Shown here piece by piece: positions 3,405 to 60,324 of a stretch of 60,324 nucleotides of DNA. A program made the translations under genes and the position numbers. The stretch lies in the sequence record OQ267593.1, one strand, 5' to 3'. Every line of letters begins with the position of its first letter. Position 1 is the stretch's first letter. This stretch comes from Klebsiella phage phi_KPN_H2. A model generated the notes under the pieces. The model was given only the letters and a program-made list of their open reading frames with translations. It was not told the DNA's origin and searched no databases.

Positions 3405-4318
3405 CGTTGAGCCTCCCCGCCCAGACCAGTTACAAGCTGTTTGATCAGCGACTGCAGTTCACCTGTCATCAGTGTAAAATCAGCGTCGAACCGCGCTAAC
3501 ACATCTTCATGATCGATATCGTCGTTCTGTTCAATCAGTTCGTCGCAGAACTTCAGGCGCGTTAAAATCGCATCATTAGTTAGTGTGAACGTGATCCGCT
3601 GTTGCCAGTCCAGCGCCAGTTTAGTAACAACTTTTCCGGCTTCGATGTGCGTTGCGATTTCATCGCTTACCAGATCCTGTTTCTTAACTTTCGCAATACC
3701 ACCATCAGCCAGGATCGCTTTCAGTTCCGCCGCATCACCGATCGCGAAGTAATCGCCAGGGACTTTACCGAGCTTGATCCATTCAGTCATCGTCAGTTCA
3801 ACAGGGTTTTCAATCGTGAGCGGGATAACCGGGAGGCTACCCAGACTTTTACGCAGCAGTGCAAGCGCGTCCTCTGCTTTACGAGCGCTGGACGCATCGA
3901 CAACAATCAACCCGTTCATAACATCGATCCACAACTGCGTACGGCTGTCTTTGGTAAATGCCCGTGGTAATAACGAATGCAACACTTCGTCTTTCAGGCT
4001 GTCTTTCTCTGTTTTCTTCAGCTTACGACCCTGTTCACTTTCCAGTTTAGCAATACGCGCATTCAGTTCCTGTTTAATAACCGGACCGGGCAGGATTTTT
4101 TCCTGACGTTGCACGGTTAACAGATACTGAGTGTGTGACCGATGCGCCAGGGTCTGGCTGAAAGCAGTCGCCGGAACCCATCCAGTGCGTGCCATATCGT
4201 TAGAACCGCACGGCGTAAACTGGAACGGCAACAACTGTTGTTCGATGGTTACCAGTTGTGCCATCAGCGACATAGGGTTACCGATGCGATAGATAATTGC
4301 ATTTTTGAAGAAGTTCAT
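3401..4318 (-). CDS. rdgC: recombination-associated protein RdgC homologue
   Basis: Recalled near-identity to E. coli RdgC along the full 305 aa (e.g. FTPCGSx[42 protein letters not shown], [15 protein letters not shown]). Confidence 0.85.
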
Positions 4319-4320
4319 AA

Positions 4321-4548
4321 TTATTCCTGTTCGTTAAAAGTAGCGACAATACGCGGTAAATGGTTTTGAATTTCCAGTGACCAAACACCACGTACTTTGG
4401 TTAATTTCCACGTTACACCGTCTTTTTCGTCATCCGGGATAGATACACCATCATCTTTATAAACGGCATTGTACGTTTTACCCACCGTAAACCACGGACA
4501 AGATTTATCCACGGTTAAACAGGTGAATCCGGTTGGAAAGCGTTTCAT
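4321..4548 (-). CDS. hypothetical protein
   Basis: Track ORF 4321..4602. Start moved to the Met that overlaps the stop of the upstream gene (ATGA). Confidence 0.4.
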
Positions 4549-4817
4549 GGTGTCGATAATCCTCTTAGTTTGTAATTCAACCGCACACAGAACATTTCCC
4601 AAGAACGGTCGTTAAATTTAAAACATGGGTCAAATGAACCATAAGCCCAGAAATTGACATACTGACCGCATGTTTCACAGTGCGTATCAATTTCAGCAGC
4701 ATTATTCGCGACTGTGTCGGTAATGGTGTCTTTAAACCGTGCACCACCACAATCAGGACAGCGAACACATTCACCATCTTTGCTGTAATTGCTGCGGATC
4801 GACCACAACTTTTTCAC
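4545..4817 (-). CDS. zinc-ribbon protein (CVRCPDCGG...CETCGQ)
   Basis: The track ORF starts with TTG at 4847. The GTG at 4817 has a strong SD (AAGAGGA). The translation contains a C4 motif. Confidence 0.45.
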   Translation of the reverse strand: MKKLWSIRSNYSKDGECVRCPDCGGARFKDTITDTVANNAAEIDTHCETCGQYVNFWAYGSFDPCFKFNDRSWEMFCVRLNYKLRGLSTP

Positions 4818-4959
4818 CTTCAATATCCTCTTTAATAACCGGTACAATTCTGCAGCGGCAGTTGATCATTCGTTCACGACCGTTATCATCAACCGCTGCC
4901 GGGATGTAAGTTACGCCTGGTTCAAGTTCAATCGTGGGCGACCAGTCGAAACGGTTCAT
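4771..4959 (-). CDS. hypothetical protein
   Basis: 62-aa ORF whose ATG overlaps the stop of the upstream small membrane protein gene. Confidence 0.4.
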   Translation of the reverse strand: MNRFDWSPTIELEPGVTYIPAAVDDNGRERMINCRCRIVPVIKEDIEGEKVVVDPQQLQQRW

Positions 4960-5117
4960 TTATTATCCCATTTCACATGAGCAATGATTAAACCCAATGC
5001 AAACATTCCGCAATGTCCCACAATCAATGACCATACGGGAACATCAATTTTTGCACAGGTCATTGAAATCGGAAGCGCTAATATAAAAACCGACAATACG
5101 ATCGTTAAACTTTTCAT
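4956..5117 (-). CDS. small two-TM membrane protein (53 codons)
   Basis: SD AAGGA sits 7 nt upstream of the ATG at 5117. The product is strongly hydrophobic. Preferred over the + strand track ORF 4984..5241. Confidence 0.4.
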   Translation of the reverse strand: MKSLTIVLSVFILALPISMTCAKIDVPVWSLIVGHCGMFALGLIIAHVKWDNK

Positions 5118-46646: not shown

Positions 46647-48306
46647 TCAACAACCGTTACGTTACTATCAGCAGGATGCGGTTAACGGTGTGAATGCTGA
46701 ATGGGACGCTGGTAAAAAAGATGTGATCCTGGTAATGCCTACCGGGAGCGGTAAAACGCGAACGATGGCTGAACTGGTTAAGGTTGACGGGATAAAAGTC
46801 ATTCAGGCGCACCGTAAAGAACTGGTTAGTCAGATAGCAATGGCTATTGCTGCACAGGGATTACCACACCGTTTCATCGCGCAAAAAGACGCTATTAAAT
46901 TTGCTACTGGTCAGCAGATGAAAAAGCTGGGTTACAGCACCTACGCACCCGGCGCAGATATCGTTATTGCCAGTGCACCCACGCTGCGAACAAAAAAATA
47001 CGAACGTTGGCACGATAGCGTAACCCGTGTTTTTTGTGATGAAGCCCATCATCTGGTACGCGGCACCATGTGGGGAACCTGTCGTGAGCTTTTCCCAAAA
47101 TCTTTAGGATTAGGCGTAACTGCATCACCGATCCGTGCAGATGGTAAAGGGCTTGGACGTCATGCGTCTGGCTATGCTGATGCGATGGTGATTGGTCCGG
47201 CAATGCGTGAATTAATCAACCAGCAGCACCTGGCAGATTATCGCCTGATTATGGCTGAAACAGATATTGACCTGACAGCGGATATGATTTCCAGCACCAC
47301 GGGGGATTACAAGCCATCTGCGTTGAAAAAGGCAATGGAAGATTCAACCATCGTTGGTGATACAGTGAGTACCTGGAAAATGTACGCCGACGGTATGCTG
47401 ACGGTGGTTTTCACCGTTGATGTTGACGCGGCTATAACACTGGCACAGGAATTCAGGGACGCGGGTATTCCTGCTGAGGCAATCAGTTCGCGTAATACCG
47501 ATCAGGAACGCGCCGATATTCTGGACCGTTTCGAAAAACGCAAAACCCTGATTATGTGCAACAATGATCTGTTCGGGGAAGGTTACGATTGTCCCGCAAT
47601 GGAATGTGCTGTAATGGACAGACCCACAGAATCCTATTCGTTGTTTATCCAGCAAATGGGACGCCCGTTACGCTATGTTCCGGGTAAAAAAGCACTCATC
47701 ATTGATAAAGTGGGTAACGTCCGGCGCTTTATTGCTCGTGGGTTTCCTTTACCCGATCAACATTACAACTGGTCGTTAGACGACCGTGATCGTAAATCAT
47801 CGAGCGGTGGGGCAAGTAATACAACCTGTACGAATAAAGGGGATGCTGCAAAAGGTATTGAACCCTGTCTGAAACCATACCCTGCAGGGCTTGCTGCCTG
47901 CCCTTACTGTGGTCATGTGCCGGAAAAAGCATTACGTTCTGGTCCTGATCGGGTTGAGGGTAATTTACGCGAACTAACCCCTGAAGAACTCGAAGAACTG
48001 CGCCGGGCAGTGGTGATTATTGACCGTGACCCAGCAGCCGTTAAAGACCAGATGTTACACGCTGGCGCACCCGCTGTTGCAGCTTACAGCGCAATGAAAA
48101 ATATTCAGGCGATGAATGATGCACAACGTAAGTTACGTTCCATGATAACCACATGGGCTGGGTTACAGCGTGATAAAGGTATTTCACCTGATGATGCTTA
48201 TCGTATGTTTTATCAGGTATTTGGCGTTGATGTACTCAGCGCACAGGCGTTACACACTCGGGAAGCAAACGAGTTGTCAGCACGGGTTGCAGGAACTATG
48301 ATTTAA
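46642..48306 (+). CDS. superfamily-2 DEAD/DEAH-box helicase
   Basis: Walker A VMPTGSGKT, DEAH box (FCDEAHH), helicase C-domain motifs. Confidence 0.8.
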   Translation: MSQQPLRYYQQDAVNGVNAEWDAGKKDVILVMPTGSGKTRTMAELVKVDGIKVIQAHRKELVSQIAMAIAAQGLPHRFIAQKDAIKFATGQQMKKLGYSTYAPGADIVIASAPTLRTKKYERWHDSVTRVFCDEAHHLVRGTMWGTCRELFPKSLGLGVTASPIRADGKGLGRHASGYADAMVIGPAMRELINQQHLADYRLIMAETDIDLTADMISSTTGDYKPSALKKAMEDSTIVGDTVSTWKMYADGMLTVVFTVDVDAAITLAQEFRDAGIPAEAISSRNTDQERADILDRFEKRKTLIMCNNDLFGEGYDCPAMECAVMDRPTESYSLFIQQMGRPLRYVPGKKALIIDKVGNVRRFIARGFPLPDQHYNWSLDDRDRKSSSGGASNTTCTNKGDAAKGIEPCLKPYPAGLAACPYCGHVPEKALRSGPDRVEGNLRELTPEELEELRRAVVIIDRDPAAVKDQMLHAGAPAVAAYSAMKNIQAMNDAQRKLRSMITTWAGLQRDKGISPDDAYRMFYQVFGVDVLSAQALHTREANELSARVAGTMI

Positions 48307-48348
48307 TGGTAATCTGTTTAGAATTATTTTAAACATAAGGTTGAACGA

Positions 48349-48855
48349 ATGCAGGATCTGATGATTGATATTGAAACATGTGGCACGAAACCCGGTTGTG
48401 CGGTGCTTTCCATTGGTGCTGTATATTTCGATCGCAAAGGTAATATCGGTGAACAGTTTTACGCATCGATGGGTTTTAGCGCGTTGTCATACGGTAATGC
48501 TGATGTTGACATAATGCGTTGGTGGTCGCAGCAGTCTGAACAGGCGCGTACTGATGCGTTTGGCGGGACTGATGACCCACGTGAAGTAGCACAACGTTTT
48601 GCAAAATTCATTCGTTCTGATGCGCTTCCCTGGGGTAACGGATCTGTATTTGATATTACCATTTTAGAAGCATGGTTTGATGCGGTAGGTATCCGCTGCC
48701 CGTGGAAATTCTGGAATGTTCGCGATGTGCGCACGGCGGTGGATTTGCTGGGTATCAATACTAAACTGTTTATCCGTGATGGTGTTTTTCATAACGCGCT
48801 GGATGATTGCCTTCATCAGATCAAATATCTCACCAGCGGGACTAAACATTTATGA
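48349..48855 (+). CDS. DnaQ-like 3'-5' exonuclease
   Basis: N-terminal MIDIETCGT (Exo I DxE) and a distal H...D motif (HNALDD). Confidence 0.6.
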   Translation: MQDLMIDIETCGTKPGCAVLSIGAVYFDRKGNIGEQFYASMGFSALSYGNADVDIMRWWSQQSEQARTDAFGGTDDPREVAQRFAKFIRSDALPWGNGSVFDITILEAWFDAVGIRCPWKFWNVRDVRTAVDLLGINTKLFIRDGVFHNALDDCLHQIKYLTSGTKHL

Positions 48856-49343
48856 CACCACTTGAACAATGGGCGAAACGCCACGGTGTCAGCCAGATGG
48901 CACTATATGAACTGTATGGTCTGTTTCAGCCGGACGGGAAACCGCATGAAGATGGTGTTAGCGAGTCAGCAACGTCTAAAGAATGCGAACTGATCGCGGC
49001 CCGTGCGGGTCAGCGTCTCTGGCGAAACAACAATGGCGCTTTACAGAATGAAAAAGGTCAGTGGGTTCGCTACGGTTTGGGTAACACCAGCAAGAAGATC
49101 AACGATGTTATGAAATCCAGTGACTATATCGGGATCAAAACGTTGATTATCACCCCTGCTGATGTTGGTCGTAAAATTGGAATGTTTATCGCGGCTGAAA
49201 TGAAAGAGCCAAACTGGCACATGACCCCCAGTGATAAACGCGCACAGGCGCAGGCCACTTTTGGTACAGTTGTAGTTAACGCAGGTGGTGAATTTCGTTT
49301 CATCACCCACCCCTCACAGTTTGAACAATGGATGAAAGAATGA
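48852..49343 (+). CDS. VRR-NUC domain nuclease
   Basis: ...SDYIGIKTLIITPADVGRKIGMFIAAEMKE matches the PD-(D/E)xK VRR-NUC core (D...E-x-K). Confidence 0.55.
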   Translation: MTPLEQWAKRHGVSQMALYELYGLFQPDGKPHEDGVSESATSKECELIAARAGQRLWRNNNGALQNEKGQWVRYGLGNTSKKINDVMKSSDYIGIKTLIITPADVGRKIGMFIAAEMKEPNWHMTPSDKRAQAQATFGTVVVNAGGEFRFITHPSQFEQWMKE

Positions 49344-49513
49344 ATAACGAACGCGTAAACCGTCTGCAAAAATTGATCGATACTCACGGGATTGAAAACG
49401 TTGCTAAACGTATGAACGTAAGTGAGATCCACATTAAACGTAATCTTCTCACAGGTCATTCAGCAATCAACCTGGTAAAACTCATGGCTGCTGAACGTCA
49501 GTTCGGAGCGTAG
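49328..49513 (+). CDS. small helix-turn-helix protein
   Basis: VAKRMNVSEIHIKRNL is HTH-like. Confidence 0.35.
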   Translation: MDERMNNERVNRLQKLIDTHGIENVAKRMNVSEIHIKRNLLTGHSAINLVKLMAAERQFGA

Positions 49514-49516
49514 ATC

Positions 49517-50080
49517 ATGATGGAGAGAAAATCACTTCCATCACAGGATTACATAAAAAAATGTTTCGTATACAACGAAGATACTGGTGATCTTGTTTGG
49601 AAATACAGACCGCAAAACCATTTTAAAAATTCCGTTGGTTTTAAAAACTTCAACAATCAGAACGTGGGTAAAATCGCGGGTTCAATAGTTACAACCAAAG
49701 AGGGTAATCGTTACAGAAGTGTTAAGATAAATGGTGTTTTTTATTTTGCGCACAGATTGGTTTTCAAGCTCTTATACAATGAAGAACCTGATTACATCGA
49801 TCATTTAAATGGGAACGGCATTGATAACCGTAAAGTGAATTTAGAAAAATCAACTGCTCATAAAAACAATAAAAATCAAACACTTAATAAAAGAAATAAA
49901 GAAAATAAAATGGGTGTTTATTGGCGTGAGGACCACGGTCGTTTTTGTGCGTCAATTGGTTATAAAGGAAAACAAATTCACATAGGTTCTTTTATGAGCA
50001 AAAAAGAAGCCGTAAAGGCCCGTGAAAAAGCTGAAAAAGAACTCTTATTTTCTTCGAATCACGGGAGACTTAGAACATGA
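49517..50080 (+). CDS. HNH homing endonuclease with AP2 DNA-binding domain
   Basis: HNH core HRLVFKLLYNEEP...DHLNGNGIDNR and C-terminal AP2-like GVYWREDHGRFCASIGYKGKQIHIGSF. Confidence 0.75.
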   Translation: MMERKSLPSQDYIKKCFVYNEDTGDLVWKYRPQNHFKNSVGFKNFNNQNVGKIAGSIVTTKEGNRYRSVKINGVFYFAHRLVFKLLYNEEPDYIDHLNGNGIDNRKVNLEKSTAHKNNKNQTLNKRNKENKMGVYWREDHGRFCASIGYKGKQIHIGSFMSKKEAVKAREKAEKELLFSSNHGRLRT

Positions 50081-52431
50081 AAGGTCTGCTGAACCGTAAA
50101 CAGTGGATTTGTTGGAGGCTGGAACACGTTGAAGGTCGCCCAAAACCTACCAAAGTACCTTACAGCCCAATTCACGGGTATAAGGCCAGTACAACAAACC
50201 CTGCTGACTGGTCTGACTATCATACTGCGCTGGGTATGGCGCAAATGTATGGTATGTCAGGTGTCGGTTTCGTGTTCACTGAAAACGATCCTTATTTTTT
50301 CATTGACGTCGATAACTGTCTGGTAGACCAGGCTACCGCTACATGGTCGCCACTGGCGCATGAATTTGTAAACCGTTTCCCCGGCGCTTATACGGAAGTA
50401 AGCCAGTCAGGAACAGGTTTACATATCATCTGTGCCTACACCAGTTTACCGGAAGGTTTCAACAGCCTTAACGATCAGAAAACCGGACTTGAAATGTACT
50501 GGCGCGATCGTTTTGTCGCCATGACGTTAACAGGGAACGGTGAAGTTGACGTTGATTATACACAGGGCGTTCATGACTCAATCGCCCGGTATGGTCGTAT
50601 TCGTTCCGATCGTTCAGCACACTGGACCAGTGCACCCTGTGACGAATGGTCCGGGCCGGAAGATGATGAAGAACTGATCGCAATGGCGTTAAAGTCGTCA
50701 AGTGCGGCTTCAGTTTTTGGGAATAAAGCATCGTTTGCGGATCTGTGGACTGCGAATGTTGAAAAACTGTCTGTCAGTTACGCCAGTGATCAGGGAAAAG
50801 ACTACAACGCGTCAGCCGCTGATGCTGCTTTGTGTTCACACCTTGCTTTCTGGACGGGTAAAAACTGTGAACGAATGGAGCGGTTATTTAATAAATCCGC
50901 GCTGGTTCGTGGTAAATGGACCGATCGCCAGGATTACCGGGAAACAACCATATTAGGCGCGGTTGAACGTTGCGATACCGTTTATCGTGCGCAACCAGCA
51001 CTGACACAGGAACTGATTAATGCTGTTACGCCAGCGCCTACAGTAGCTGTTACTGGTGGTGTTCCGGCATATATGACTATCAGACCTGGTGAAGGTGCAT
51101 ATGGTGCTAACCATACCGTTAACGCGTCAACGTTCGTTAATAACTATTATCCGAACAACACGCTTATTTTTGTACAGCAGCAACCGTACCGCTTTAACGG
51201 TCGCGTCTGGGAGCGGGTGACAGAAGATGAATTAAAACATCAGTTATCTATGGCAATGCTGGCGAGCGAACCAAAAGCTGATGTGATTAATGGCACATAT
51301 AAAGTTTTAAGCTATCTGTTTACCCGTGCCGATCGTGAGTTAGGCACCTGGCCGGGCGTTGATGTTTCACACTATATCGTGTGTCAAAACGGGATCCTTG
51401 ACGTTCACACGAGAAAATGTGAACCGCACAATCCTGATTTCTTCACTACCAGTATTTTACCATACAGTTACGATCCGTTTGCACAGGCACCCGTTTTTCA
51501 GGAATTTCTGAATACGACACTGGAAGGCGATCAGGAACGTATTGCACTGTTGCAGGAGTGGTTGGGTTATATGCTTGTTAACTCCTATGACTATCAGAAA
51601 GCAATGCTGATGATCGGTGCACCACGTTCCGGTAAAGGTACAATCGGCCAGATTATACAGGCGCTGGTAGGTGAAGAAGCGTATGCAGGGATCACGCTCG
51701 AAGGTCTGGCGAATGATGCAATACTTGAAACTGTTCTGGATAAATCAGTGTTGTTTATCGGTGATGCTCACAGTGTTTCCGGGCCTGACCGTAACAGGAT
51801 CCTTGACCGCTTTAAGTCAATAACTGGTGCTGATGCGATACCTGTTAACCGTAAATATAAAGGTGCGTGGAACGGTCGTTTACCAGGTCGTATGACACTT
51901 GCCGCGAACAATATTCCGGCTTTTGCGGATGATTCCGGGGCAATGGCTAACCGTCTGCTGATCCTGCCGTTTAACGTGTCGTTCCTCAATCGTGAAGATA
52001 TCACCTTAAAATCACGACTGATGAAGGAATTACCGGGGATCTGCAACTGGGCTATCGAAGGTCTGGAACGTTTACGTAAAAATAACCGCTTCACAGAACC
52101 TGCAGCGAGTATCGCAGAACGTCAGGAAATCATGGACCAGCAGGCACCGTTAATGGCTTTTGTGCGTGACTGCTGCGAACTGCTGCCTGATAGCGCTACT
52201 CACACTGAAGAACTTTTCTGTAGATATAAAATGTGGAAGATGCAGGAGGGAGGCGCAACCATGACTAAAACCGCATTTAGTCGGGCGTTTAAGTCAATGC
52301 TTCGTGGGCGAGTGGTTAAAGATGTGGTATCAGTCAATGGTCAGCGTGCTAACGGCTTCAGGGGTGTCCGTTTACTCTCTTTCCAGTCAGCGGCTAATGT
52401 GCTGCCGTTCCCGCCTGTCAGTAATAGTTAA
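50077..52431 (+). CDS. primase-helicase (bifunctional prim-pol N-terminal domain plus D5/P4-type SF3 helicase)
   Basis: Walker A GAPRSGKGT and Walker B ...LFIGDA in the C-terminal half. The N-terminal half is about 400 aa. Confidence 0.7.
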   Translation: MKGLLNRKQWICWRLEHVEGRPKPTKVPYSPIHGYKASTTNPADWSDYHTALGMAQMYGMSGVGFVFTENDPYFFIDVDNCLVDQATATWSPLAHEFVNRFPGAYTEVSQSGTGLHIICAYTSLPEGFNSLNDQKTGLEMYWRDRFVAMTLTGNGEVDVDYTQGVHDSIARYGRIRSDRSAHWTSAPCDEWSGPEDDEELIAMALKSSSAASVFGNKASFADLWTANVEKLSVSYASDQGKDYNASAADAALCSHLAFWTGKNCERMERLFNKSALVRGKWTDRQDYRETTILGAVERCDTVYRAQPALTQELINAVTPAPTVAVTGGVPAYMTIRPGEGAYGANHTVNASTFVNNYYPNNTLIFVQQQPYRFNGRVWERVTEDELKHQLSMAMLASEPKADVINGTYKVLSYLFTRADRELGTWPGVDVSHYIVCQNGILDVHTRKCEPHNPDFFTTSILPYSYDPFAQAPVFQEFLNTTLEGDQERIALLQEWLGYMLVNSYDYQKAMLMIGAPRSGKGTIGQIIQALVGEEAYAGITLEGLANDAILETVLDKSVLFIGDAHSVSGPDRNRILDRFKSITGADAIPVNRKYKGAWNGRLPGRMTLAANNIPAFADDSGAMANRLLILPFNVSFLNREDITLKSRLMKELPGICNWAIEGLERLRKNNRFTEPAASIAERQEIMDQQAPLMAFVRDCCELLPDSATHTEELFCRYKMWKMQEGGATMTKTAFSRAFKSMLRGRVVKDVVSVNGQRANGFRGVRLLSFQSAANVLPFPPVSNS

Positions 52432-52469
52432 AATAATTCTTGACGGATTACAAGGAAGTGATCCATACT
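52430..52469 (+). promoter_or_regulatory. conserved promoter element copy 9 (plus orientation): AAAATAATTCTTGACGGATTA, 18-nt spacer, CATACT
   Basis: -35 TTGACG at 52440-52445. Located upstream of the small-gene array that starts at 52500. Confidence 0.55.
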
Positions 52470-52499
52470 CTGTACATCAACTGAACAGGGGTTAAGAAA

Positions 52500-52709
52500 A
52501 TGGTTAACGTTAAGTGCATCAAAGATAACGAAGGTTACTGGACCGAAGGTGAAATTTATCAGGCTGAAACAGAACCGGGTGGTTTTTTAAGAATTGGTGA
52601 CGATAACGACAAAAATGCTGATTGGTGTTTAGTGCCATTATCATATGATGAAAATGAAAAAGCCACTTATTTATTAGCTGGCTTAGATGCTGAATTTATT
52701 GATCTATGA
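52500..52709 (+). CDS. hypothetical protein
   Basis: First gene after the + oriented conserved promoter at 52430-52469. Confidence 0.45.
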   Translation: MVNVKCIKDNEGYWTEGEIYQAETEPGGFLRIGDDNDKNADWCLVPLSYDENEKATYLLAGLDAEFIDL

Positions 52710-52933
52710 AACGTCGCCGTAAGCAGTATACATGCCGATGCAGCGCCTATGGTTTCCCACACCGTTTTAGTGGTGGGCGCTGTCAGGGGTTATGGTTGGT
52801 CGAACCTAATAATTATTGCCCCGCGTGTAATTTGCTTACTGGTTCTGGTTGCCAGGTTATTAACGGTGTTGAACACCCGCGCGAATGTCCGTTAGTTCAG
52901 GATTTTTGCACTTATCACGAGGTTAAATTATGA
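52706..52933 (+). CDS. cysteine-rich small protein (putative zinc-binding)
   Basis: Nine Cys in 75 aa. Confidence 0.4.
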   Translation: MKRRRKQYTCRCSAYGFPHRFSGGRCQGLWLVEPNNYCPACNLLTGSGCQVINGVEHPRECPLVQDFCTYHEVKL

Positions 52934-53142
52934 AGCCGCGTTATCGATTAATGAAATTATCAGAATGTGCGAACGGGACGCGATTTTATTTCTATCGTTC
53001 TAAATTGATGTGGCCTTATACGCTAATTGCTATCAATCGTAAGAAATACGAAGGTGTTTATCACATAGGGCATGGTTTTAATATTAACGTTCGGATGTTT
53101 AGAACATCGTTGAATACACAAGTTTGGGCTAAGGTGGATTAA
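52930..53142 (+). CDS. hypothetical protein
   Basis: 70-aa ORF with ATGA coupling. Confidence 0.4.
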   Translation: MKPRYRLMKLSECANGTRFYFYRSKLMWPYTLIAINRKKYEGVYHIGHGFNINVRMFRTSLNTQVWAKVD

Positions 53143-53400
53143 ATGGAATGGAAACGTATTAAACGAAGTTACGGATCGAACCCATTATATCTGTATTTGA
53201 ATAAACTTCATGTTGCTACAGTTTCATGGGATTTTGGGCATTCTAAAAATAACCCCAATACTCATCGTGCTAATGTGCATTTACCGGGTATGAAACAAGA
53301 ATTTTCTACTTCTACACACCCCAGTGAACAAATAGCAAAAGACGCTGTTGAAACTATTGTTAAACGCTGGGTAGATGCTGCCGGACTGGAGTTTAAATAA
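53143..53400 (+). CDS. hypothetical protein
   Basis: 85-aa ORF. Confidence 0.4.
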   Translation: MEWKRIKRSYGSNPLYLYLNKLHVATVSWDFGHSKNNPNTHRANVHLPGMKQEFSTSTHPSEQIAKDAVETIVKRWVDAAGLEFK

Positions 53401-53591
53401 TGAGTGGTCGTCGAACTCGTTCGTTACGCTGTAGCAAGTGTTATGAACAATACGGTTATAACGGTCTGGTCGAAGTTACTGGTGAGAACGGAAACGCTTT
53501 TACCTGCCGTTGTAAAACCTGTGGTCACACTTATCAAACAACATCAGCGGCTGCACGCCGTGCCTGGAGATATCGTGAAAAGAGAATTTGA
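53400..53591 (+). CDS. Ogr/Delta-like zinc-finger protein (candidate transcription activator)
   Basis: C-x2-C-x21-C-x-C-x2-C resembles the P2 Ogr C-x2-C-x22-C-x4-C finger. Confidence 0.35.
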   Translation: MSGRRTRSLRCSKCYEQYGYNGLVEVTGENGNAFTCRCKTCGHTYQTTSAAARRAWRYREKRI

Positions 53592-53598
53592 TCGTTAT

Positions 53599-54144
53599 GT
53601 GGTAATCAAGAATAGTCATGCAGAACAAGCACTAACCGATGATGAACGTAAAGAACTTTATCGGTTAGGTGTGAAGTGCGCAAAATGGCGTCGGGATAAC
53701 GGCAAAAAACCTTTCGAGTGTGTTGTAGTTGAACACGACTGGCCTGAATATGAACCTGTCTGGAAAGCGATTGAACAACGTGTTGATGGTCCACACCCTT
53801 TACCAGTAATGAATAAAGATGTTCGGTGTTTAGTTGACGCTATTAGTCAGGCAGCGTTAGCTGATGATATTTCTGCTGGTATATTTGGTCCTGTTTTTAG
53901 TCAGCTTATTTTCCAGTTAGCAGAAATAAAGCGCAAATCACAATTACTCGATCAGTTACGCGATCTGATGGGTTACGTTCAAAACGGAACAGATGGAATT
54001 ATCACTTTGTTCCAGGATGATGCTACTTTAACTTATTGGGTTACTCATCGAACAGCAGGTAAAAAAGAACATGACTGGCAAGAACATGCTGCATCACTAG
54101 AACAAGCTATTCGTAATGCGTATGATAAACATGGGGATAACTAA
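53599..54144 (+). CDS. hypothetical protein whose C-terminal domain is paralogous to 54979..55176
   Basis: The track ORF 53404..54144 overlaps the preceding gene. A GTG at 53599 is the proposed start. C-terminus LRDLMGYVQNGTDGIITLFQDD...YWV...LEQAIRNAYDKHG. Confidence 0.4.
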   Translation: MVIKNSHAEQALTDDERKELYRLGVKCAKWRRDNGKKPFECVVVEHDWPEYEPVWKAIEQRVDGPHPLPVMNKDVRCLVDAISQAALADDISAGIFGPVFSQLIFQLAEIKRKSQLLDQLRDLMGYVQNGTDGIITLFQDDATLTYWVTHRTAGKKEHDWQEHAASLEQAIRNAYDKHGDN

Positions 54145-54145
54145 G

Positions 54146-54307
54146 ATGCTTGAACGTATCGTTATTTCGATTATTTTTCTGATCTCCGTGGCGCTGGTTT
54201 CATCGAATCTGGCGTTTATTACTCAACAGTTCGTACTGGCTTTAACGGGCGTAATTGCAGCGTTAGCCAGTATCGCCGCGTGCATGTGGGGCGCTAAACA
54301 TGAATAA
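54146..54307 (+). CDS. small two-TM membrane protein
   Basis: MLERIVISIIFLISVALVSS...LTGVIAALASIAACMWGA. Confidence 0.4.
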   Translation: MLERIVISIIFLISVALVSSNLAFITQQFVLALTGVIAALASIAACMWGAKHE

Positions 54308-54992
54308 GGTAGTCTGGTCACTTTTCGACGGTTCCGGGATCATGGGTTTGCCGTGGGCTGAGGCTGGTTATCAGGTGTACTGTTTCAATGCGGATAAGGG
54401 TAATCACGGTGAATATAAAATTAAAATGTATCACCCTAACCTGCATTATGTTGATCAGTGGATTGATCCAGATTTTGCTATTAAACGTGAAATCCTCGGA
54501 ACGCCGTTACCGTCTATTATTTTTGGTTTCCCTGATTGCACGCTATTTGCTCAAAGTGGATCACAACATGAACGATCGCAGGGAGCGCTACAATACGCGC
54601 TAATGCTGGCAAAACTGATCCGTGAATTGGGTGAAAGATATAACGTACCGTGGATGATTGAAAACCCGGTGGGTGCTTTGTCACGACCAGAAATGATGGG
54701 TAAAGCAAATGCTTATTTTCATCCGTGGGAATATGGCGGTCATATGAGTATTGACGATCGACCATATCACCCAAAAATGCCGATGTTTGATGGGTATACG
54801 AAAAAAACATGTTTGTGGTTCGGCAATGGTTTTAAAATGCCTGAAAAGTGTCCGGGGCCGATTAACATTGGTTTCTTCTGGGGCTGGAAATTCCTCGGTG
54901 GTAACTCTACACGGACTAAGCAATTACGATCACTTACCCCACGGGGCTTTGCTCGTGCTGTGTTCAAGGCTAACCATCATGACGCATCTTGA
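54300..54992 (+). CDS. DNA (cytosine-5)-methyltransferase-like protein, minimal (no recognisable target-recognition domain)
   Basis: Motif I LFDGSGIMG, motif IV-like GFPDCTLFAQSG, motif VI-like IENPVGAL, distal GGNS. Only 230 aa. Confidence 0.45.
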   Translation: MNKVVWSLFDGSGIMGLPWAEAGYQVYCFNADKGNHGEYKIKMYHPNLHYVDQWIDPDFAIKREILGTPLPSIIFGFPDCTLFAQSGSQHERSQGALQYALMLAKLIRELGERYNVPWMIENPVGALSRPEMMGKANAYFHPWEYGGHMSIDDRPYHPKMPMFDGYTKKTCLWFGNGFKMPEKCPGPINIGFFWGWKFLGGNSTRTKQLRSLTPRGFARAVFKANHHDAS

Positions 54993-55176
54993 AAAATTAC
55001 GATCGCTGATGGGGTATTACCAGTCCGGTAGCGATCAGATAATCAGTCTTGCCCAGGATCCTCATACGGGGCTTTACTGGGTTAGTTGTAAACGTGCCTG
55101 GTATGAATGCGGCGCAACACTGGAAGCCGCGATTGATACCGCTTATGAAAAACATGGGGTGCCTTCTTATGAGTGA
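54979..55176 (+). CDS. small protein (65 aa) paralogous to the C-terminal domain of 53599..54144
   Basis: LRSLMGYYQSGSDQIISLAQDP...YWV...LEAAIDTAYEKHG aligns with the C-terminus of the upstream protein. Confidence 0.4.
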   Translation: MTHLEKLRSLMGYYQSGSDQIISLAQDPHTGLYWVSCKRAWYECGATLEAAIDTAYEKHGVPSYE

Positions 55177-55663
55177 ACAATACGTTTATCGATACAATGA
55201 TGTTAACCGGGTTGGTGATGGTCATGCACAGGTTCAGTTATTGCGCCGGGTGGTTATCAAAGAAACCGAACACTATGTATGGTCTGTTCCTGAACCTTTT
55301 GGGTGGAATGGTGTTCCGGGTGCATTAAGCGATCTCGGGTATTACTGGTCACATCCTAAGCGCAGTTATTATTATCCAAAGAAAACGAAAAAGAACGCGG
55401 ATCGGTCTGCCTGGCATATTACTAAAGAACAGGCAATGAAAGCATGGTTCATTCGTAAACAACACCAGTTAGCACGCCTCAGACTGGCGCTGGAACGCGT
55501 TGAACTCTGTGTGGAAGGTGTTAAAGCGCAGGGGGTGTTAGTTCCAGCCGGTTACGATAAAGTTGGTGATCCGTGGCAACCACTGCGTGTAAAACAAACA
55601 CCTGATAAGGTTGAATGTGGTGCTGGTCCGGTACTGTCTGAATATAGCTGGGTGGAGATCTGA
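55172..55663 (+). CDS. hypothetical protein
   Basis: The track ORF starts at 55049. The ATG at 55172 forms an ATGA overlap with the preceding gene. Confidence 0.4.
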   Translation, partial: SEQYVYRYNDVNRVGDGHAQVQLLRRVVIKETEHYVWSVPEPFGWNGVPGALSDLGYYWSHPKRSYYYPKKTKKNADRSAWHITKEQAMKAWFIRKQHQLARLRLALERVELCVEGVKAQGVLVPAGYDKVGDPWQPLRVKQTPDKVECGAGPVLSEYSWVEI

Positions 55664-55665
55664 TT

Positions 55666-55869
55666 ATGAATGTGGGGAATTTATATGTTTATCAACAAAC
55701 TGGTATTTTTGAAAAATGCTGTGTTTTAATAACACATCATAATCCTTGCGAGGGATTGATCATATGGGCAGACGGTGTAAAACAAAGATCTATGATTACA
55801 GATCAGGATTTCCGCAAATACAACGGGGAATTAGTCGGACGTAATGTAAAAATGAGGCCAACACTATGA
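55666..55869 (+). CDS. hypothetical protein
   Basis: 67-aa ORF. Confidence 0.4.
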   Translation: MNVGNLYVYQQTGIFEKCCVLITHHNPCEGLIIWADGVKQRSMITDQDFRKYNGELVGRNVKMRPTL

Positions 55870-56261
55870 TCGTAGTCGTCACAGGAGGTCGTGAATATAA
55901 CGATCAGGCTGCTATATTCAGTGCGTTATCAATACTACATGCGCAACACCCGATTACTGAACTGATCGAAGGTGAAGCGGCTGGTGTTGATTCAATCTGC
56001 CGTGAATGGGCGGAACGGCACGCGATCCCTGTTCGTCGTTGTCCGGCTGACTGGGGTAATCTTGACGTGCCGGGCGCGGTTATTAAACAGGGTAAGCACG
56101 GGGCATATAACGCCGTAGCTGGTCATCAGCGTAACCAATCCATGTTAGATAATGAACCACGTCCGACATATGGTGTTGTGTTCCCCGGTGGGCGTGGAAC
56201 GGCTGATATGCATCGTCGCATGTTGAAAGCTGGTTTAACTGTATGGGTGCCTTATGGTTGA
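55866..56261 (+). CDS. DUF2493 / SLOG-superfamily (LOG/DprA-like Rossmann) protein
   Basis: N-terminal VVVTGGREY... motif and a distal AGHQRNQ.ML motif. 131 aa. Confidence 0.5.
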   Translation: MIVVVTGGREYNDQAAIFSALSILHAQHPITELIEGEAAGVDSICREWAERHAIPVRRCPADWGNLDVPGAVIKQGKHGAYNAVAGHQRNQSMLDNEPRPTYGVVFPGGRGTADMHRRMLKAGLTVWVPYG

Positions 56262-56691
56262 TAGTTTTAGTGGTGAGTATCGCTGGTTAAGTAATTTCCA
56301 TCCGGTCACCGTAATTTATGACGGGTATGTTTTTAAAACTGTTGAACATGCTTACCAGGCACTTAAATGTAAATTTTATCAGGAGTTCCTGGAGGTTAAA
56401 AACTGTGAAACGCCGGGTCAGGCTAAACGTAGCGCTCGTCAAAAAGTAATGCGTGATGACTGGGATAAAGTTAAAATCCCGGTGATGTTTTATTTACTGC
56501 AGCAAAAATTTTCAGATCCTCATTTATGGTCTTTGCTCATTGCTACTGGTGATCAACCGATCGTTGAAGGTAACCAGTGGGGCGATACTTTCTGGGGTGT
56601 TTGTCGTGGTAAAGGTGAAAACCATTTAGGCAAAATGATTATGGCTATCCGAGCCGGGCAACAACACTACATTATTCAAAATAATTCTTGA
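56254..56691 (+). CDS. NADAR (YbiA-like) domain protein
   Basis: ...LSNFHP..., TVEHAYQALK, ...WD..., NHLGKMIMAIR align with E. coli YbiA motifs (SNF..P, TSEHYFQAQK, NRLGYLLMELR). Confidence 0.8.
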   Translation: MVDSFSGEYRWLSNFHPVTVIYDGYVFKTVEHAYQALKCKFYQEFLEVKNCETPGQAKRSARQKVMRDDWDKVKIPVMFYLLQQKFSDPHLWSLLIATGDQPIVEGNQWGDTFWGVCRGKGENHLGKMIMAIRAGQQHYIIQNNS

Positions 56692-56716
56692 CACATTGCA
56701 AACCCTCCACCATAAT
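56677..56716 (+). promoter_or_regulatory. conserved promoter element copy 10 (plus orientation): AAAATAATTCTTGACA, 17-nt spacer, CATAAT
   Basis: -35 TTGACA at 56688-56693 and -10 CATAAT at 56711-56716. A small 5' hairpin (CAGCCTCAG...CGAGGCTG) follows. Confidence 0.65.
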
Positions 56717-56750
56717 CAGCCTCAGTTAACCAACACGAGGCTGATAACCA

Positions 56751-57509
56751 ATGTCCAACATCCATTCACTACGCAAACTGTCAGAAGCCGACAAAGAAAA
56801 CGTAAAACGCGCCAACTCATTCATTATCGACCCGCGCATTATCCAGATTGAACCGGGTTTTAACCCGCGTGGCATGTTCACTGATAACTACTGGGAACAA
56901 CCGGATACCCTGGCGCACATCGAACAGTTCGTTAAAGCGTATCGCAACGGCGACTTCGTACCACCTATCGCGGTGAAAGTTATCGATGGTGTGCCGTTCG
57001 TGCGCGACGGTGAGCACCGCTTACGGGCGCTGCGTAAACTGATTGCTGAGGGTGTACCGTTCCAGCGTGTTGAAGTCGTTGAAGCGTCTGGTGACGAACT
57101 GGCGCAGGCTAAAACCAACTTTAACGCTAACAACGGTCGCCAGTGGTCAGCCGTCGAACGCGCTGTTCATTACGGACGGTTTAAATCCTACGGTATGACC
57201 GTTGAAGAGATCGCCCACGAGGTCGGTAAAACCGTACAGCATGTTTACCAGATGCTGACCATCCTTGAAATGCCGCTGGAAATGAAGCGCCGGATTCAGG
57301 AAGGGGCGATTAGCGCATCAGCCGCGATCAACCTGTTTAAAAACCCGGAACGCGCCACCGTTAAACGCCCTCCTGCAAAACTGATCCGTTCGGCTGTTGA
57401 AGCCATCCGTGGTGAATGGTCGGTCACACGGCAGGAAGGCGGTAAAGTTCTGGTTGAACTGACCGCTGAACAGTTCGAAGCACTGAAGGCACTGAAAGAC
57501 CATGAATAA
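56751..57509 (+). CDS. ParB-like nuclease domain protein
   Basis: ParB-box-like DGEHRLRA after IQIEPGFNPR. Preceded by the consensus promoter TTGACA-17-CATAAT. Confidence 0.65.
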   Translation: MSNIHSLRKLSEADKENVKRANSFIIDPRIIQIEPGFNPRGMFTDNYWEQPDTLAHIEQFVKAYRNGDFVPPIAVKVIDGVPFVRDGEHRLRALRKLIAEGVPFQRVEVVEASGDELAQAKTNFNANNGRQWSAVERAVHYGRFKSYGMTVEEIAHEVGKTVQHVYQMLTILEMPLEMKRRIQEGAISASAAINLFKNPERATVKRPPAKLIRSAVEAIRGEWSVTRQEGGKVLVELTAEQFEALKALKDHE

Positions 57510-57527
57510 AGTTGAGGAAAAATCAGA

Positions 57528-57821
57528 ATGACTATTGAAGACCAAATCGGAAAAGAATTAGCAGCAGAGGATGGCGGTGGTTTCGGCTTTGTCTGCATCT
57601 GGCGAGAAAAAGGAGATCCACTTGACGATGGGTCTGACCACGCTCGGCATTGCTCTGTAGGTGAATTTCTTTCCAGACCTGAAAACCAGAAAGGGAAGTG
57701 GCTCATCGATGGTGGCTGGGGTGGTCCTCCTGGGCCGATTCACGTTCAGTGGAACGAAGAAACCAACGAGTGGGAAAATGGTGGTTTTGGCGGGCATAGG
57801 TTTTCAAACGAGAGTAAATAA
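57528..57821 (+). CDS. glycine-rich hypothetical protein
   Basis: 97-aa ORF with a GAGGAAAA SD. Confidence 0.45.
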   Translation: MTIEDQIGKELAAEDGGGFGFVCIWREKGDPLDDGSDHARHCSVGEFLSRPENQKGKWLIDGGWGGPPGPIHVQWNEETNEWENGGFGGHRFSNESK

Positions 57822-57822
57822 C

Positions 57823-58182
57823 ATGACCAGAGAAGAACTGTTGAACATCATTGAAACCGATCAAGTTCAGTGTGGCGAGGCTGCTACACTGGCACGAATG
57901 GCGCTGGCGTTTTATGAGTGGCATGAAAAAACAGCGTGGGTGCAAACTGATAAGCGTTTTGGTGTTCTGAAGCCGTGGGGCAAGCATCGCGCGGATGTTC
58001 TGAAAGAATATATTGAACATCTGGAAAATCGTGTTGTGGAACTGCCGAAGTTAAAAATGCTCGAAGACTACCTCGCAGAAGTGGCTGTTGAAGAGAGAAA
58101 ACAGATTCTGGTCGGCGTGAAACTTGAATTTCATCGTGCGCTGGTTAATGTTGGCATTAAGATAGGGGTTGATCATGGGTAA
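57823..58182 (+). CDS. hypothetical protein
   Basis: Track ORF 57661..58182. Start moved to the Met just after the stop of the preceding gene. Confidence 0.4.
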   Translation: MTREELLNIIETDQVQCGEAATLARMALAFYEWHEKTAWVQTDKRFGVLKPWGKHRADVLKEYIEHLENRVVELPKLKMLEDYLAEVAVEERKQILVGVKLEFHRALVNVGIKIGVDHG

Positions 58183-58576
58183 ATTCAGAAAGGAAAAATT
58201 AAATCCGGTTGATGTTCTTCGCGATCAATTTGGCATCATGTGCGAGCACATCACGTATGACCCTGGCCTTAAAAAATCAGGATGTCATTTTCAGGTTATT
58301 CGTCAATGCTCGCATGATGGAACAATGCTGTTCACTACCGAACTATTGGCAGACACCTTGCTCGGCATTGCAAATATGCAGGCTTATCCGAAAAATCTTG
58401 CGCCTGAATTCGACAAACTTGTGGCGATAAAATATACCGTCGGCCCAATCTGGTTAAGCACCGTTTATGGGGTAGTGGACCTGCCACCTGGGTCATACCC
58501 AGGGGAGCGCCAGCGCACGCGTATGTGTGTTGTTTGCGAATACGTTTACGCGGATAAGACGCTGCAGGAGGACTAA
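58169..58576 (+). CDS. hypothetical protein
   Basis: 135-aa ORF. Confidence 0.45.
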   Translation: MIMGKFRKEKLNPVDVLRDQFGIMCEHITYDPGLKKSGCHFQVIRQCSHDGTMLFTTELLADTLLGIANMQAYPKNLAPEFDKLVAIKYTVGPIWLSTVYGVVDLPPGSYPGERQRTRMCVVCEYVYADKTLQED

Positions 58577-58578
58577 CC

Positions 58579-58737
58579 ATGTTAGAAAACAACCCTAACT
58601 ATTGCACGATGCAATGTAAGTCTAAATTCATACGGCTTACAGCAGACGAAGAAAAAGCCTGCAAAGGTCGTAATAGTTTCCCCAGCGTTAACGAAAATAA
58701 GTGGGTTAATAAGTTTATTAAGGACGGTAAGAAATGA
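58579..58737 (+). CDS. small hypothetical protein (52 aa)
   Basis: Fills the gap between neighbours and has an ATGA overlap with the next gene. Confidence 0.3.
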   Translation: MLENNPNYCTMQCKSKFIRLTADEEKACKGRNSFPSVNENKWVNKFIKDGKK

Positions 58738-58952
58738 AATATGAAAAACTCGACCAGATGATTTTAAATCGACTGTGTTCAGAACCGAAACCTTTCTGTG
58801 ACATTTTCACCGGGGATATTCTTGAAAAGTGCGAAGAATTATCCATTCATAAACATGAAGGTTTTCGCGTACTTGACCGCCGTTTACAGGCACTGCGTAA
58901 AAAAGGTTTAATTGTAAATATCAGTTCGTCTAAAGGGTGGATGAAACTATGA
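58734..58952 (+). CDS. hypothetical protein
   Basis: 72-aa ORF. Confidence 0.4.
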   Translation: MKYEKLDQMILNRLCSEPKPFCDIFTGDILEKCEELSIHKHEGFRVLDRRLQALRKKGLIVNISSSKGWMKL

Positions 58953-59242
58953 AATGGATCTCGTGGTTTCAACCAACAGAAGATTATCGCCCGGTCAGTT
59001 ACCCACCGACTGAGAAAGTTTTAGCGTGGTGGTGTACTGGTCATAGTGAAAACGGTGCCACACTTGTTGCTTTGGTTGATGTAGATGATCAGGAACAGGC
59101 GGAACACCACGTTAAACTGAACTGGCCTGAAGCGGAAAACTGGCGTTTCTGTGAAGATAAGAATGATAAAACTTTTGGCGATCGCTTTCCTCTCGAAGAC
59201 TGGATGATTGAACGTGGTTGTAGTTATAGGGAGGTATGCTGA
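58949..59242 (+). CDS. hypothetical protein
   Basis: The track ORF starts at 58937. The ATG at 58949 forms an ATGA overlap. Confidence 0.4.
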   Translation: MKWISWFQPTEDYRPVSYPPTEKVLAWWCTGHSENGATLVALVDVDDQEQAEHHVKLNWPEAENWRFCEDKNDKTFGDRFPLEDWMIERGCSYREVC

Positions 59243-59454
59243 TGAAACTGACATACGATCAACGACAAGCCTTAATCGGTAAATCGTTTGTATCAAAGAT
59301 GAATCACCCCGTTGAATCGAGCGTTACCGTACATGATGTTGAACGTTGCGGCGGTGGGTATACTGTTAAATTCACCAGACACGATCAGTGGGGAGGACTT
59401 ATTTATTGTGGTTTACAACGGTTCCTGAAACGTTTCCCACATGAGGTACGCTGA
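59236..59454 (+). CDS. hypothetical protein
   Basis: 72-aa ORF. Confidence 0.4.
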   Translation: MLMKLTYDQRQALIGKSFVSKMNHPVESSVTVHDVERCGGGYTVKFTRHDQWGGLIYCGLQRFLKRFPHEVR

Positions 59455-59687
59455 TGAAACGCTATGAGTTTTGGTTCTGTCATAACATGATGTATAACGC
59501 ACAAACCATTAAGCGGATACGGTGGTATAACCGCTGGTTTATTTCGATGGGGTGTATAGTGATCGATAAAGTAAAAGGCAATGCAATTTTTAGTGGATGG
59601 GATACGCCGGAAATTGCATTTAAAGAGGCGAAAAAAGAATTTGAACGCCGTGGTTTATACGAACATGTCATGGGTAAACGTATATGA
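59454..59687 (+). CDS. hypothetical protein
   Basis: 77-aa ORF. Confidence 0.4.
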   Translation: MKRYEFWFCHNMMYNAQTIKRIRWYNRWFISMGCIVIDKVKGNAIFSGWDTPEIAFKEAKKEFERRGLYEHVMGKRI

Positions 59688-59914
59688 AAATTAAAAACAT
59701 GGCTGCGTCTGGCCTGTCAGGTCGTATCTTTTACGGTACGATGGAAACCAGTAATGGTGGTCAGTCCGGGCGCTGGTTAGCCGGGAAACAGGACGTTACT
59801 GATATGGCGATCAAAGCCGTTGCTGAACACTGCTATCAGACGGGTAATAGTTACAGTTGCCAACTCGTTACCGGGGAGACTCTTACGTTATCAGTTGAGG
59901 TGAGCAGACCATGA
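59684..59914 (+). CDS. hypothetical protein
   Basis: 76-aa ORF. Confidence 0.4.
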   Translation: MKIKNMAASGLSGRIFYGTMETSNGGQSGRWLAGKQDVTDMAIKAVAEHCYQTGNSYSCQLVTGETLTLSVEVSRP

Positions 59915-60052
59915 AAATTAAACTGCCCGGTTGGTGGGTTTCTGTAAGCTGGCAACCTACTAAAAACTGGGGTTACTTTTACTTCTGGCATGACCAACCG
60001 CTTCGCGCATTCTGGATCGGTCATATCGTAATCGAATGGTGGTGGCGATGAG
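59911..60052 (+). CDS. small Trp-rich hypothetical protein (47 aa)
   Basis: ATGA-coupled on both sides. Too short for the ORF track. Confidence 0.3.
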
Positions 60053-60324
60053 TCTATTTCAATGTGAAAATTGTGGGTGTGTTGAAAACACAGCGCTTTC
60101 AGCCCAGGGTTTTACAAACTCGTTTCAGGCGTTGTTTGACTGGTCGTATGCCCAAAACCGTGCGGGTAAACGGTTGTGTTCCGCGTGTGGGCCTGTTAAA
60201 TATCGTGATGGTAATCCGACACCATATGGTAAATGGCATAACGTATTTGCTCGCCAGTATTTACAGTTAGGTAAGTTTAAAACAAACAGTCAGGGTAATC
60301 TGCAACATATTGAAACAGGTGATA
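60048..60324 (+). CDS. 5' portion of the zinc-ribbon gene that continues at 3..170 (wraps across the window ends)
   Basis: ATG at 60048. The frame stays open to the window end and continues in phase at the window start. Confidence 0.5.
   Translation, partial: MSLFQCENCGCVENTALSAQGFTNSFQALFDWSYAQNRAGKRLCSACGPVKYRDGNPTPYGKWHNVFARQYLQLGKFKTNSQGNLQHIETGD
60205..60324. repeat. exact 120-bp terminal redundancy (identical to 1..120)
   Basis: Base-by-base comparison. Confidence 0.95.

Follow-up and report, generated by a model that had tools for sequence, protein, structure and literature searches.

A probable stand-alone cytosine-C5 methyltransferase of Klebsiella phage phi_KPN_H2 and the domain shared by its flanking proteins

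Can a cytosine-C5 methyltransferase of only 230 amino acids act on its own, or does it depend on two neighbouring proteins that share a domain of about 60 amino acids with each other? The question is raised by the gene at 54300-54992 in the genome of Klebsiella phage phi_KPN_H2 (record OQ267593.1; the whole stretch of 60,324 nucleotides analysed is referred to as the window). A first-pass annotation had proposed a split or partnered enzyme that obtains its specificity from the paralogous flanking proteins, or else a non-methylating use of the methyltransferase fold. The present analysis indicates that the gene very probably encodes a stand-alone, S-adenosylmethionine (AdoMet)-dependent DNA cytosine-C5 methyltransferase of a compact, Dcm-like phage family, and that its activity probably does not require the flanking genes. 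For the most part the finding is ordinary, in that the protein belongs to a known and widely annotated family: its members are already called C5 or Dcm-like methyltransferases in the BASEL collection, in Klebsiella phage Carvaje and in many GenBank records. In the record of Klebsiella phage phi_270 the same gene is labelled 'hypothetical protein', a label that can confidently be replaced by Dcm-like C5 cytosine methyltransferase.

Fold, catalytic residues and family of the methyltransferase

The protein encoded at 54300-54992 contains the motifs LFDGSGIMG (residues 8-16), GFPDCTLFAQSG (76-87), ENPVG (121-125) and LGGNS (199-203). C5-methyltransferase motifs in a protein too short to accommodate a target recognition domain (TRD) had been noticed in the first-pass annotation, and the open reading frame (ORF), the motifs and a C-terminal tail of 62 residues all agree with this description. 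A profile search, which had been suggested as a check of the fold, matched PHROG 757 'DNA methyltransferase' (E 2.7e-77) and aligned residues 1-228 with profile positions 13-221 of 247. The AlphaFold2 model built with 69 homologues (mean predicted local distance difference test score, pLDDT, of 89) displays the catalytic-domain fold of C5-methyltransferases, the sole disordered stretch being residues 83-91 right after the catalytic Cys. Closest structural neighbours of this model are the catalytic domains of DNMT3A and DNMT3B (PDB 6u8p and 4u7t), with 14-15% sequence identity.

Catalysis is proposed to depend on Cys80 (54537-54539), on Glu121 within ENP (54660-54662) and on the pair Lys168/Lys169 in the sequence Y-x-K-K-T (54801-54806). 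In an alignment of 80 homologues (30-59% identity), C80, E121, P123, Y166, K168 and T170 are invariant and the triplet E121-N122-P123 as a whole is invariant or nearly so; F9-D-G11-S-G13 of motif I is present in the window protein. The spacing F9-C80-E121-Y166 is close to that of F18-C81-E119-Q161 in M.HhaI, and the N-terminal two thirds of the two proteins are colinear (partly aligned). In the window protein, motifs I, IV and VI follow one another in the order and at the distances known from the canonical representatives, i.e., M.HhaI, E. coli Dcm/M.EcoRII and the Pfam family PF00145, with which it also has the Cys/Glu chemistry in common.

At 90% identity the family falls into 1664 clusters, and at 50% identity (E up to 1e-3) into 877. 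Homologues occur in 1489 of 50,697 phage records (full length in 1468), among them Drexlerviridae, Vequintavirus, Queuovirinae-like and many other enterobacterial phages as well as Vibrio and Campylobacter phages. With few exceptions, family members have a length of 200-260 amino acids. N-terminal extensions of 60-180 amino acids are present in ~10% of the representatives at 50% identity, and two proteins 72% identical to the window protein (P0003, encoded at 4001-4990 of locus L003, and P0004) have an extra ~100 amino acids at the N-terminus without any Pfam match. When ten extended members were scanned against Pfam for a fused DNA-binding domain, a C-terminal HNH domain was the one match obtained; the N-terminal extensions may represent fused DNA-binding or targeting modules.

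Experimental support for the family comes from phage K42, which is 95.4% identical to phage KarlJaspers (Bas06). According to a preprint, all K42 mutants escaping the retron Ec86 disrupt a 711-bp dcm gene, and dcm knock-out phages escape this retron. Provided from a plasmid, i.e., without other phage genes, K42 Dcm is reported to be toxic only together with Ec86; expressed alone, it increases 5-methylcytosine (5mC) on the multicopy single-stranded DNA (msDNA) of retron Ec86, as determined by LC-MS (liquid chromatography coupled to mass spectrometry), while a C82A/E128A/K175A/K176A mutant causes neither toxicity nor a rise in 5mC (bioRxiv 10.1101/2023.08.16.553469). The authors of that study also superposed their AlphaFold2 model of K42 Dcm on DNMT3A. 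The KarlJaspers gene (MZ501090, bas06_0055; 711 bp, 236 amino acids), annotated as 'Dcm-like C5 cytosine methyltransferase', carries Cys82, Glu128, Lys175 and Lys176, i.e., exactly the residues named for K42 Dcm. Its product, to which the K42 enzyme is near-identical, can be aligned with the entire window protein (BLASTP; full length, 42% identity, E 2e-56), whereby C82/E128/K175/K176 map to C80/E121/K168/K169. Due to this full-length homology and residue match, the window gene falls into a family with an experimentally supported, partner-free and 5mC-forming member. The K42/KarlJaspers and window enzymes also have in common FDGSG in motif I, Asn in place of the acidic residue of motif II, a single domain of ~230 amino acids and the location of the gene in an early operon; activity was shown for K42 only.

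The in vivo substrate documented for the K42 homologue is the stem-loop of retron msDNA, a small hairpin DNA. This might be taken to suggest a substrate other than double-stranded DNA, with the protein acting on RNA or tRNA as an m5C methyltransferase like Dnmt2, or modifying free nucleotides or single-stranded DNA; the missing TRD would then be accounted for. However, what K42 Dcm targets in msDNA is the double-stranded stem, and the family has no consistent linkage to genes of nucleotide metabolism, so that such a substrate is extremely improbable.

Several points speak against the proposed reading, i.e., an active, Dcm-like DNA methyltransferase with an anti-restriction role: (i) PF00145 reaches only 14.1 bits (cut-off 22) on the window protein, covers just residues 6-95 and is matched at E <0.1 by only 5 of the 80 family members, (ii) searches of PDB sequences with the single protein and with two family profiles returned nothing meaningful, (iii) the motif VIII strand, identified by its position relative to the W/L-E/D-Y-G block in an hhalign alignment, reads Y166-T-K168-K-T170, i.e., Y-x-K-x-T and not Q-x-R-x-R, (iv) motif I of the window protein has its first Gly, but this residue is not conserved in the family at large, (v) the characterised K42 Dcm (like that of KarlJaspers) has canonical FPPC and, in the catalytic loop, TDLANSG, whereas the window enzyme has FPDC and TLFAQSG, (vi) no simple relation between carrying such genes and resistance to restriction emerged from the BASEL study, (vii) no direct methylome data for the lineage of phages Carvaje and 9NA were found in literature searches, and (viii) for K42 Dcm, specificity for CCWGG is an assumption based on E. 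coli Dcm and was tested only by msDNA site mutation (bioRxiv 10.1101/2023.08.16.553469). The departures at motif VIII, motif II and the first Gly of motif I are family-wide. Sequence-level ties to canonical C5-methyltransferases are weak; alignment of the family profile with the single M.HhaI sequence (hhalign, E 0.025) spans motif IV to the block preceding motif VIII, and NCBIfam has no match for the methyltransferase or for either of the two flanking proteins. It is doubtful whether the distal GNS is the equivalent of motif X, since the best-conserved C-terminal block (RS.TPRGFA.AV) only comes after it; this block may itself correspond to either motif IX or motif X.

In the first-pass annotation, motif IV was described as having an Asp inserted before the catalytic Cys. 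The alignment of 80 homologues reveals a substitution, with no length change at motif IV and the Pro two residues before Cys kept in 75 of the 80 proteins. Of the canonical PC dipeptide, the Cys is invariant, and the preceding residue, Asp in the window protein, varies among the homologues between P (60), V (8), E (6), D (4), T (1) and S (1). Among the 120 closest relatives, the same column contains D (86), S (19), P (10) and Q (3), and FPPC and FPDC variants interleave among proteins that are >58% identical. Judging from these alignments, the Asp is probably a tolerated substitution at a variable position (P-x-C) and no evidence for new chemistry.

The prevalence of Asp in place of Pro among the closest relatives, together with the failure of Pfam and NCBIfam models to recognise the protein, could also be explained if the FPDC subclade were catalytically dead (a DNA-binding pseudoenzyme or decoy) or transferred another group, e.g., carboxymethyl from carboxy-S-adenosylmethionine. 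Yet this position varies throughout the family (P, V, E, D, S, T, Q) while Cys80, Glu121, Lys168 and FDGSG are kept, the interleaving of both variants speaks against a split in function, the score of 8yf3 does not exceed that of ordinary methyltransferases, and many phages strongly conserve the ORF at full length. A dead or altered enzyme is thus very unlikely, and the non-methylating use of the fold proposed earlier gains no support, given the retained catalytic residues and the 5mC formation reported for the K42 homologue.

Target recognition and proposed mode of action

Only 62 residues follow the invariant K168, as compared to 162 after R165 in M.HhaI (verified on the HhaI sequence), and ~40 residues separate T170 from R210 of the C-terminal RS.TPRGFA.AV block. 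A canonical TRD, which occupies roughly 80-100+ residues between motifs VIII and IX, is accordingly not present; compared to canonical bacterial C5-methyltransferases, the window protein is without ~100 residues of TRD and motif IX region. This absence is a property of the whole family and no peculiarity of 54300-54992. The small size of the recognition region accounts for DNMT3A/B, the C5-methyltransferases with the smallest recognition region, being the best structural matches. DNMT3 enzymes form dimers or tetramers with DNMT3L and possess regulatory PWWP/ADD domains, and the window protein is ~55 residues shorter than the DNMT3B catalytic chain. Recognition presumably involves the catalytic loop and a short conserved insert (residues 176-205).

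The motif CCWGG occurs 124 times in the window versus 72.7 +/- 8.3 expected from dinucleotide shuffles, i.e., it is over-represented and not avoided. Enterobacterial DNA has the same CCWGG over-representation, and the count is therefore uninformative on the specificity of the enzyme.

Homology with the K42 enzyme as well as with canonical C5-methyltransferases suggests that Cys80 attacks C6 of the flipped-out cytosine, with Glu121 of the ENP motif protonating N3 as general acid and Lys168/Lys169 standing in for the motif VIII arginines as substrate contacts. The disordered loop 83-91 may close over the DNA and, as in DNMT3A/B, might recognise the target jointly with the ~35 residues that separate the RS.TPRGFA.AV helix from the motif VIII-like strand, in place of a large recognition domain. 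Expressed together with early and replication genes, the enzyme would methylate replicating phage DNA as well as host DNA. The likely benefit would be a blunting of restriction, at the cost of being sensed by retron Ec86-type defence and presumably also by methylation-dependent nucleases. Activity, target and anti-restriction role of the window protein are inferred, 5mC formation being extrapolated from the 42%-identical K42-type enzyme.

The annotation predicts (i) 5mC in DNA of this Klebsiella phage, (ii) possible protection from some restriction enzymes, and (iii) sensitivity to retron Ec86/Eco1-type and to 5mC-dependent defence systems, all of which bear on the choice of phages for therapy. 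In addition, a C5-methyltransferase of minimal size, whether defined or relaxed in its specificity, would make a useful tool.

The LMGY domain and the partner hypothesis

The methyltransferase gene is part of a run of short early genes, which overlap and have the same orientation. A gene for a D5/NrS-1-type primase-helicase (50077-52431) is located upstream of this run, and YAcAr/SLOG, NADAR and ParB-like genes are located downstream. The following features are relevant here (L numbers designate loci with methyltransferase family members):

53400..53591 (+): CxxC...CxxC protein, 63 amino acids, from the ORF list; homologous ORF of 61-64 amino acids in Carvaje, L084, L085 and L088
53599..54144 (+): upstream protein, 181 amino acids, GTG start, two modules; PHROG 7810 and 7432 on residues 1-65, hidden Markov model (HMM) of the shared domain 3e-31
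54146..54307 (+): small hydrophobic or membrane protein; PHROG 22517 'lipoprotein' (E 1e-7), annotated as coding sequence in phi_270 and Carvaje; overlap of 8 nt between its stop and the start of the methyltransferase gene
54300..54992 (+): predicted small stand-alone Dcm-like DNA cytosine-C5 methyltransferase, 230 amino acids; ORF and PHROG 757
54979..55176 (+): protein of 65 amino acids consisting of one copy of the ~60-amino-acid 'LMGY...QDDAT' domain; overlaps the methyltransferase stop by 14 nt

That the flanking proteins share a domain of ~60 amino acids, as stated in the first-pass annotation, holds: the C-terminus of 53599-54144 and the product of 54979-55176 have 32/63 identities (51%) in BLASTP (E 3e-18). 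The upstream protein is composed of an N-terminal module of ~63-65 amino acids (53599-53793) and a C-terminal module of ~69 amino acids (53935-54144), the latter representing the second copy of this LMGY domain. Both modules also occur separately; tblastn located the N-terminal one (PHROG 7810) on its own, as a small protein, in hundreds of phage records, most of them T5-like. The start of the upstream gene is a matter of annotation, since the phi_270 record places it at GTG 53404 (246 amino acids), overlapping the 63-amino-acid CxxC ORF out of frame. As Carvaje and further relatives have the latter (53400-53591) conserved as a gene of its own, translation more probably starts from the GTG at 53599.

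Among 5.8 billion proteins, the 65-amino-acid protein has 8 close clusters, and a profile search extended these to 125 clusters of 55-121 amino acids, none of which contains a Pfam domain. The LMGY domain was detected in 18 phage records: in 10 of them (Carvaje-like or 9NA) it follows the methyltransferase, and the other eight are distant copies (38-43% identical) from Providencia, Salmonella, Pseudomonas, Klebsiella, Enterobacter and Escherichia phages. In the five distant copies examined, the domain forms the C-terminus of a protein of 130-195 amino acids with a different N-terminus, and no methyltransferase is encoded within 3 kb. In two Queuovirinae, the domain is encoded between DprA-like and primase genes. 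Thus, the LMGY domain is an independent, mobile and modular phage domain family.

The predicted fold of the 65-amino-acid protein is alpha-beta-beta-beta-alpha, and Foldseek with the domain model yielded no significant structural match. A double-stranded RNA-binding domain (dsRBD) was considered, but there is no dsrm match in Pfam (E up to 1), the basic KKxAK is absent and helix 2 begins TLEAAIDTAYEKHG. The likeness of the model to a dsRBD would accordingly be a topological resemblance only.

Could these flanking domains bind the mini-methyltransferase as subunits of a split enzyme and provide its DNA-sequence specificity? The absence of a canonical TRD, the 14-nt overlap suggesting translational coupling, and the retention of the downstream gene beside the methyltransferase in the 10 records of the Carvaje/9NA lineage would be compatible with such an arrangement. 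M.AquI is an example of a two-subunit methyltransferase. In Type I systems and in Type IIB systems such as BcgI (described in PMC3592466), a catalytic polypeptide needs a separately encoded specificity subunit, as envisaged in the first-pass annotation. In such split or subunit-dependent systems the partner gene always accompanies the catalytic gene, whereas the candidate partners of the window are missing from almost all family members.

This was evident from a search, in all six frames and with the domain HMM, of 90 loci with family members from viral contigs, to which annotated phages were added (93-94 sources in total). Matches were restricted to 7 of 94 sources, namely the window, phi_270, Carvaje and four metagenomic loci with a methyltransferase at least 90% identical, and the LMGY domain is absent from ~85 other methyltransferase loci. 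Even in L088 and L089, whose enzymes are 84-86% identical to that of the window and have the same FPDCT motif, the methyltransferase gene is followed by a YAcAr gene, and neither domain gene is present. Carvaje keeps the downstream copy only. Clustering of the ORFs within 2.5 kb revealed no real neighbour family in more than 15 of 93 loci. On the level of phage records, 18 with the LMGY domain compare to 1489 with the methyltransferase, ~1470 of which are without the domain. KarlJaspers, a member of Drexlerviridae and thus of another family than the window phage, has no LMGY-domain neighbours.

Hence, a partner gene is not co-inherited with the catalytic gene across the family. With the domain missing across loci, no conserved neighbour and the activity reported for K42 Dcm in the absence of other phage genes, it is ruled out that a partner is generally required, and a requirement specific to the Carvaje/9NA lineage is unlikely. 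The distant copies, which end unrelated small proteins away from any methyltransferase, as well as the net acidic character of the domain also speak against a specificity subunit, rendering the split-enzyme model highly improbable; specificity contributed by paralogous partners is not supported. A further reading, also unlikely, is that the compact family represents minimal C5-methyltransferases with very short or relaxed recognition, or with dimerisation-dependent, DNMT3-like recognition, which the coupled 65-amino-acid protein could modulate or retarget in the Carvaje/9NA lineage.

In the favoured interpretation of 54300-54992 as a stand-alone enzyme, the two flanking genes are mosaic accessory genes that are neighbours of the methyltransferase by chance in this lineage. 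The LMGY domain is worth recording as a small modular phage family without a Pfam model, and it has no demonstrated link to methylation.

Genome setting

The window represents a complete siphophage genome of ~60 kb, the first 120 bases of which (1-120) are identical to the last 120 (60205-60324), as expected of a circularly assembled or terminally redundant genome. Close relatives are Klebsiella phages Carvaje, Kpn BU9 and KP13-27, with Sashavirus and 9NA-like phages farther off. Positions 47400-55222 are 100% identical to phi_270 (OR148034). The latter, deposited as 'partial genome', is 100% identical on both sides of, and without, a segment of ~4,980 bp corresponding to window positions 55223-60204. 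The breakpoint lies ~50 nt past the gene for the 65-amino-acid protein, and the segment holds genes for a 164-amino-acid PHROG 1636 protein and for YAcAr/SLOG, NADAR, ParB-like and other proteins.

Small genes around the methyltransferase differ between relatives. A gene of ~70-80 amino acids (MTELGAVIRKGE...ALREQGFDV...) is located immediately upstream of the methyltransferase in L084, L085, L002 and L087-L089. The window is without this gene, and that for the small membrane protein abuts the methyltransferase in its place; the presence or absence of the ~70-80-amino-acid gene illustrates mosaic turnover. In relatives without the gene for the 65-amino-acid protein, the YAcAr gene comes directly after the methyltransferase.

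In view of the Queuovirinae-like relatives, modification by 7-deazaguanine was considered and rejected: no 7-deazaguanine genes were found among the scanned proteins of the replication module, and such a modification has no bearing on 54300-54992. A second DNA methyltransferase is encoded elsewhere in the genome (38923-40254, - strand; 443 amino acids, N6_N4_Mtase, PF01555, E 5e-31), beside DUF7768/DUF4406 and NinX-like genes. Downstream of the LMGY-domain gene, the YAcAr/SLOG (PF10686; 55866-56261, + strand) and NADAR (PF08719; 56254-56691, + strand) genes are adjacent and overlapping, a pair suggestive of nucleotide- or ADP-ribose-related counter-defence.

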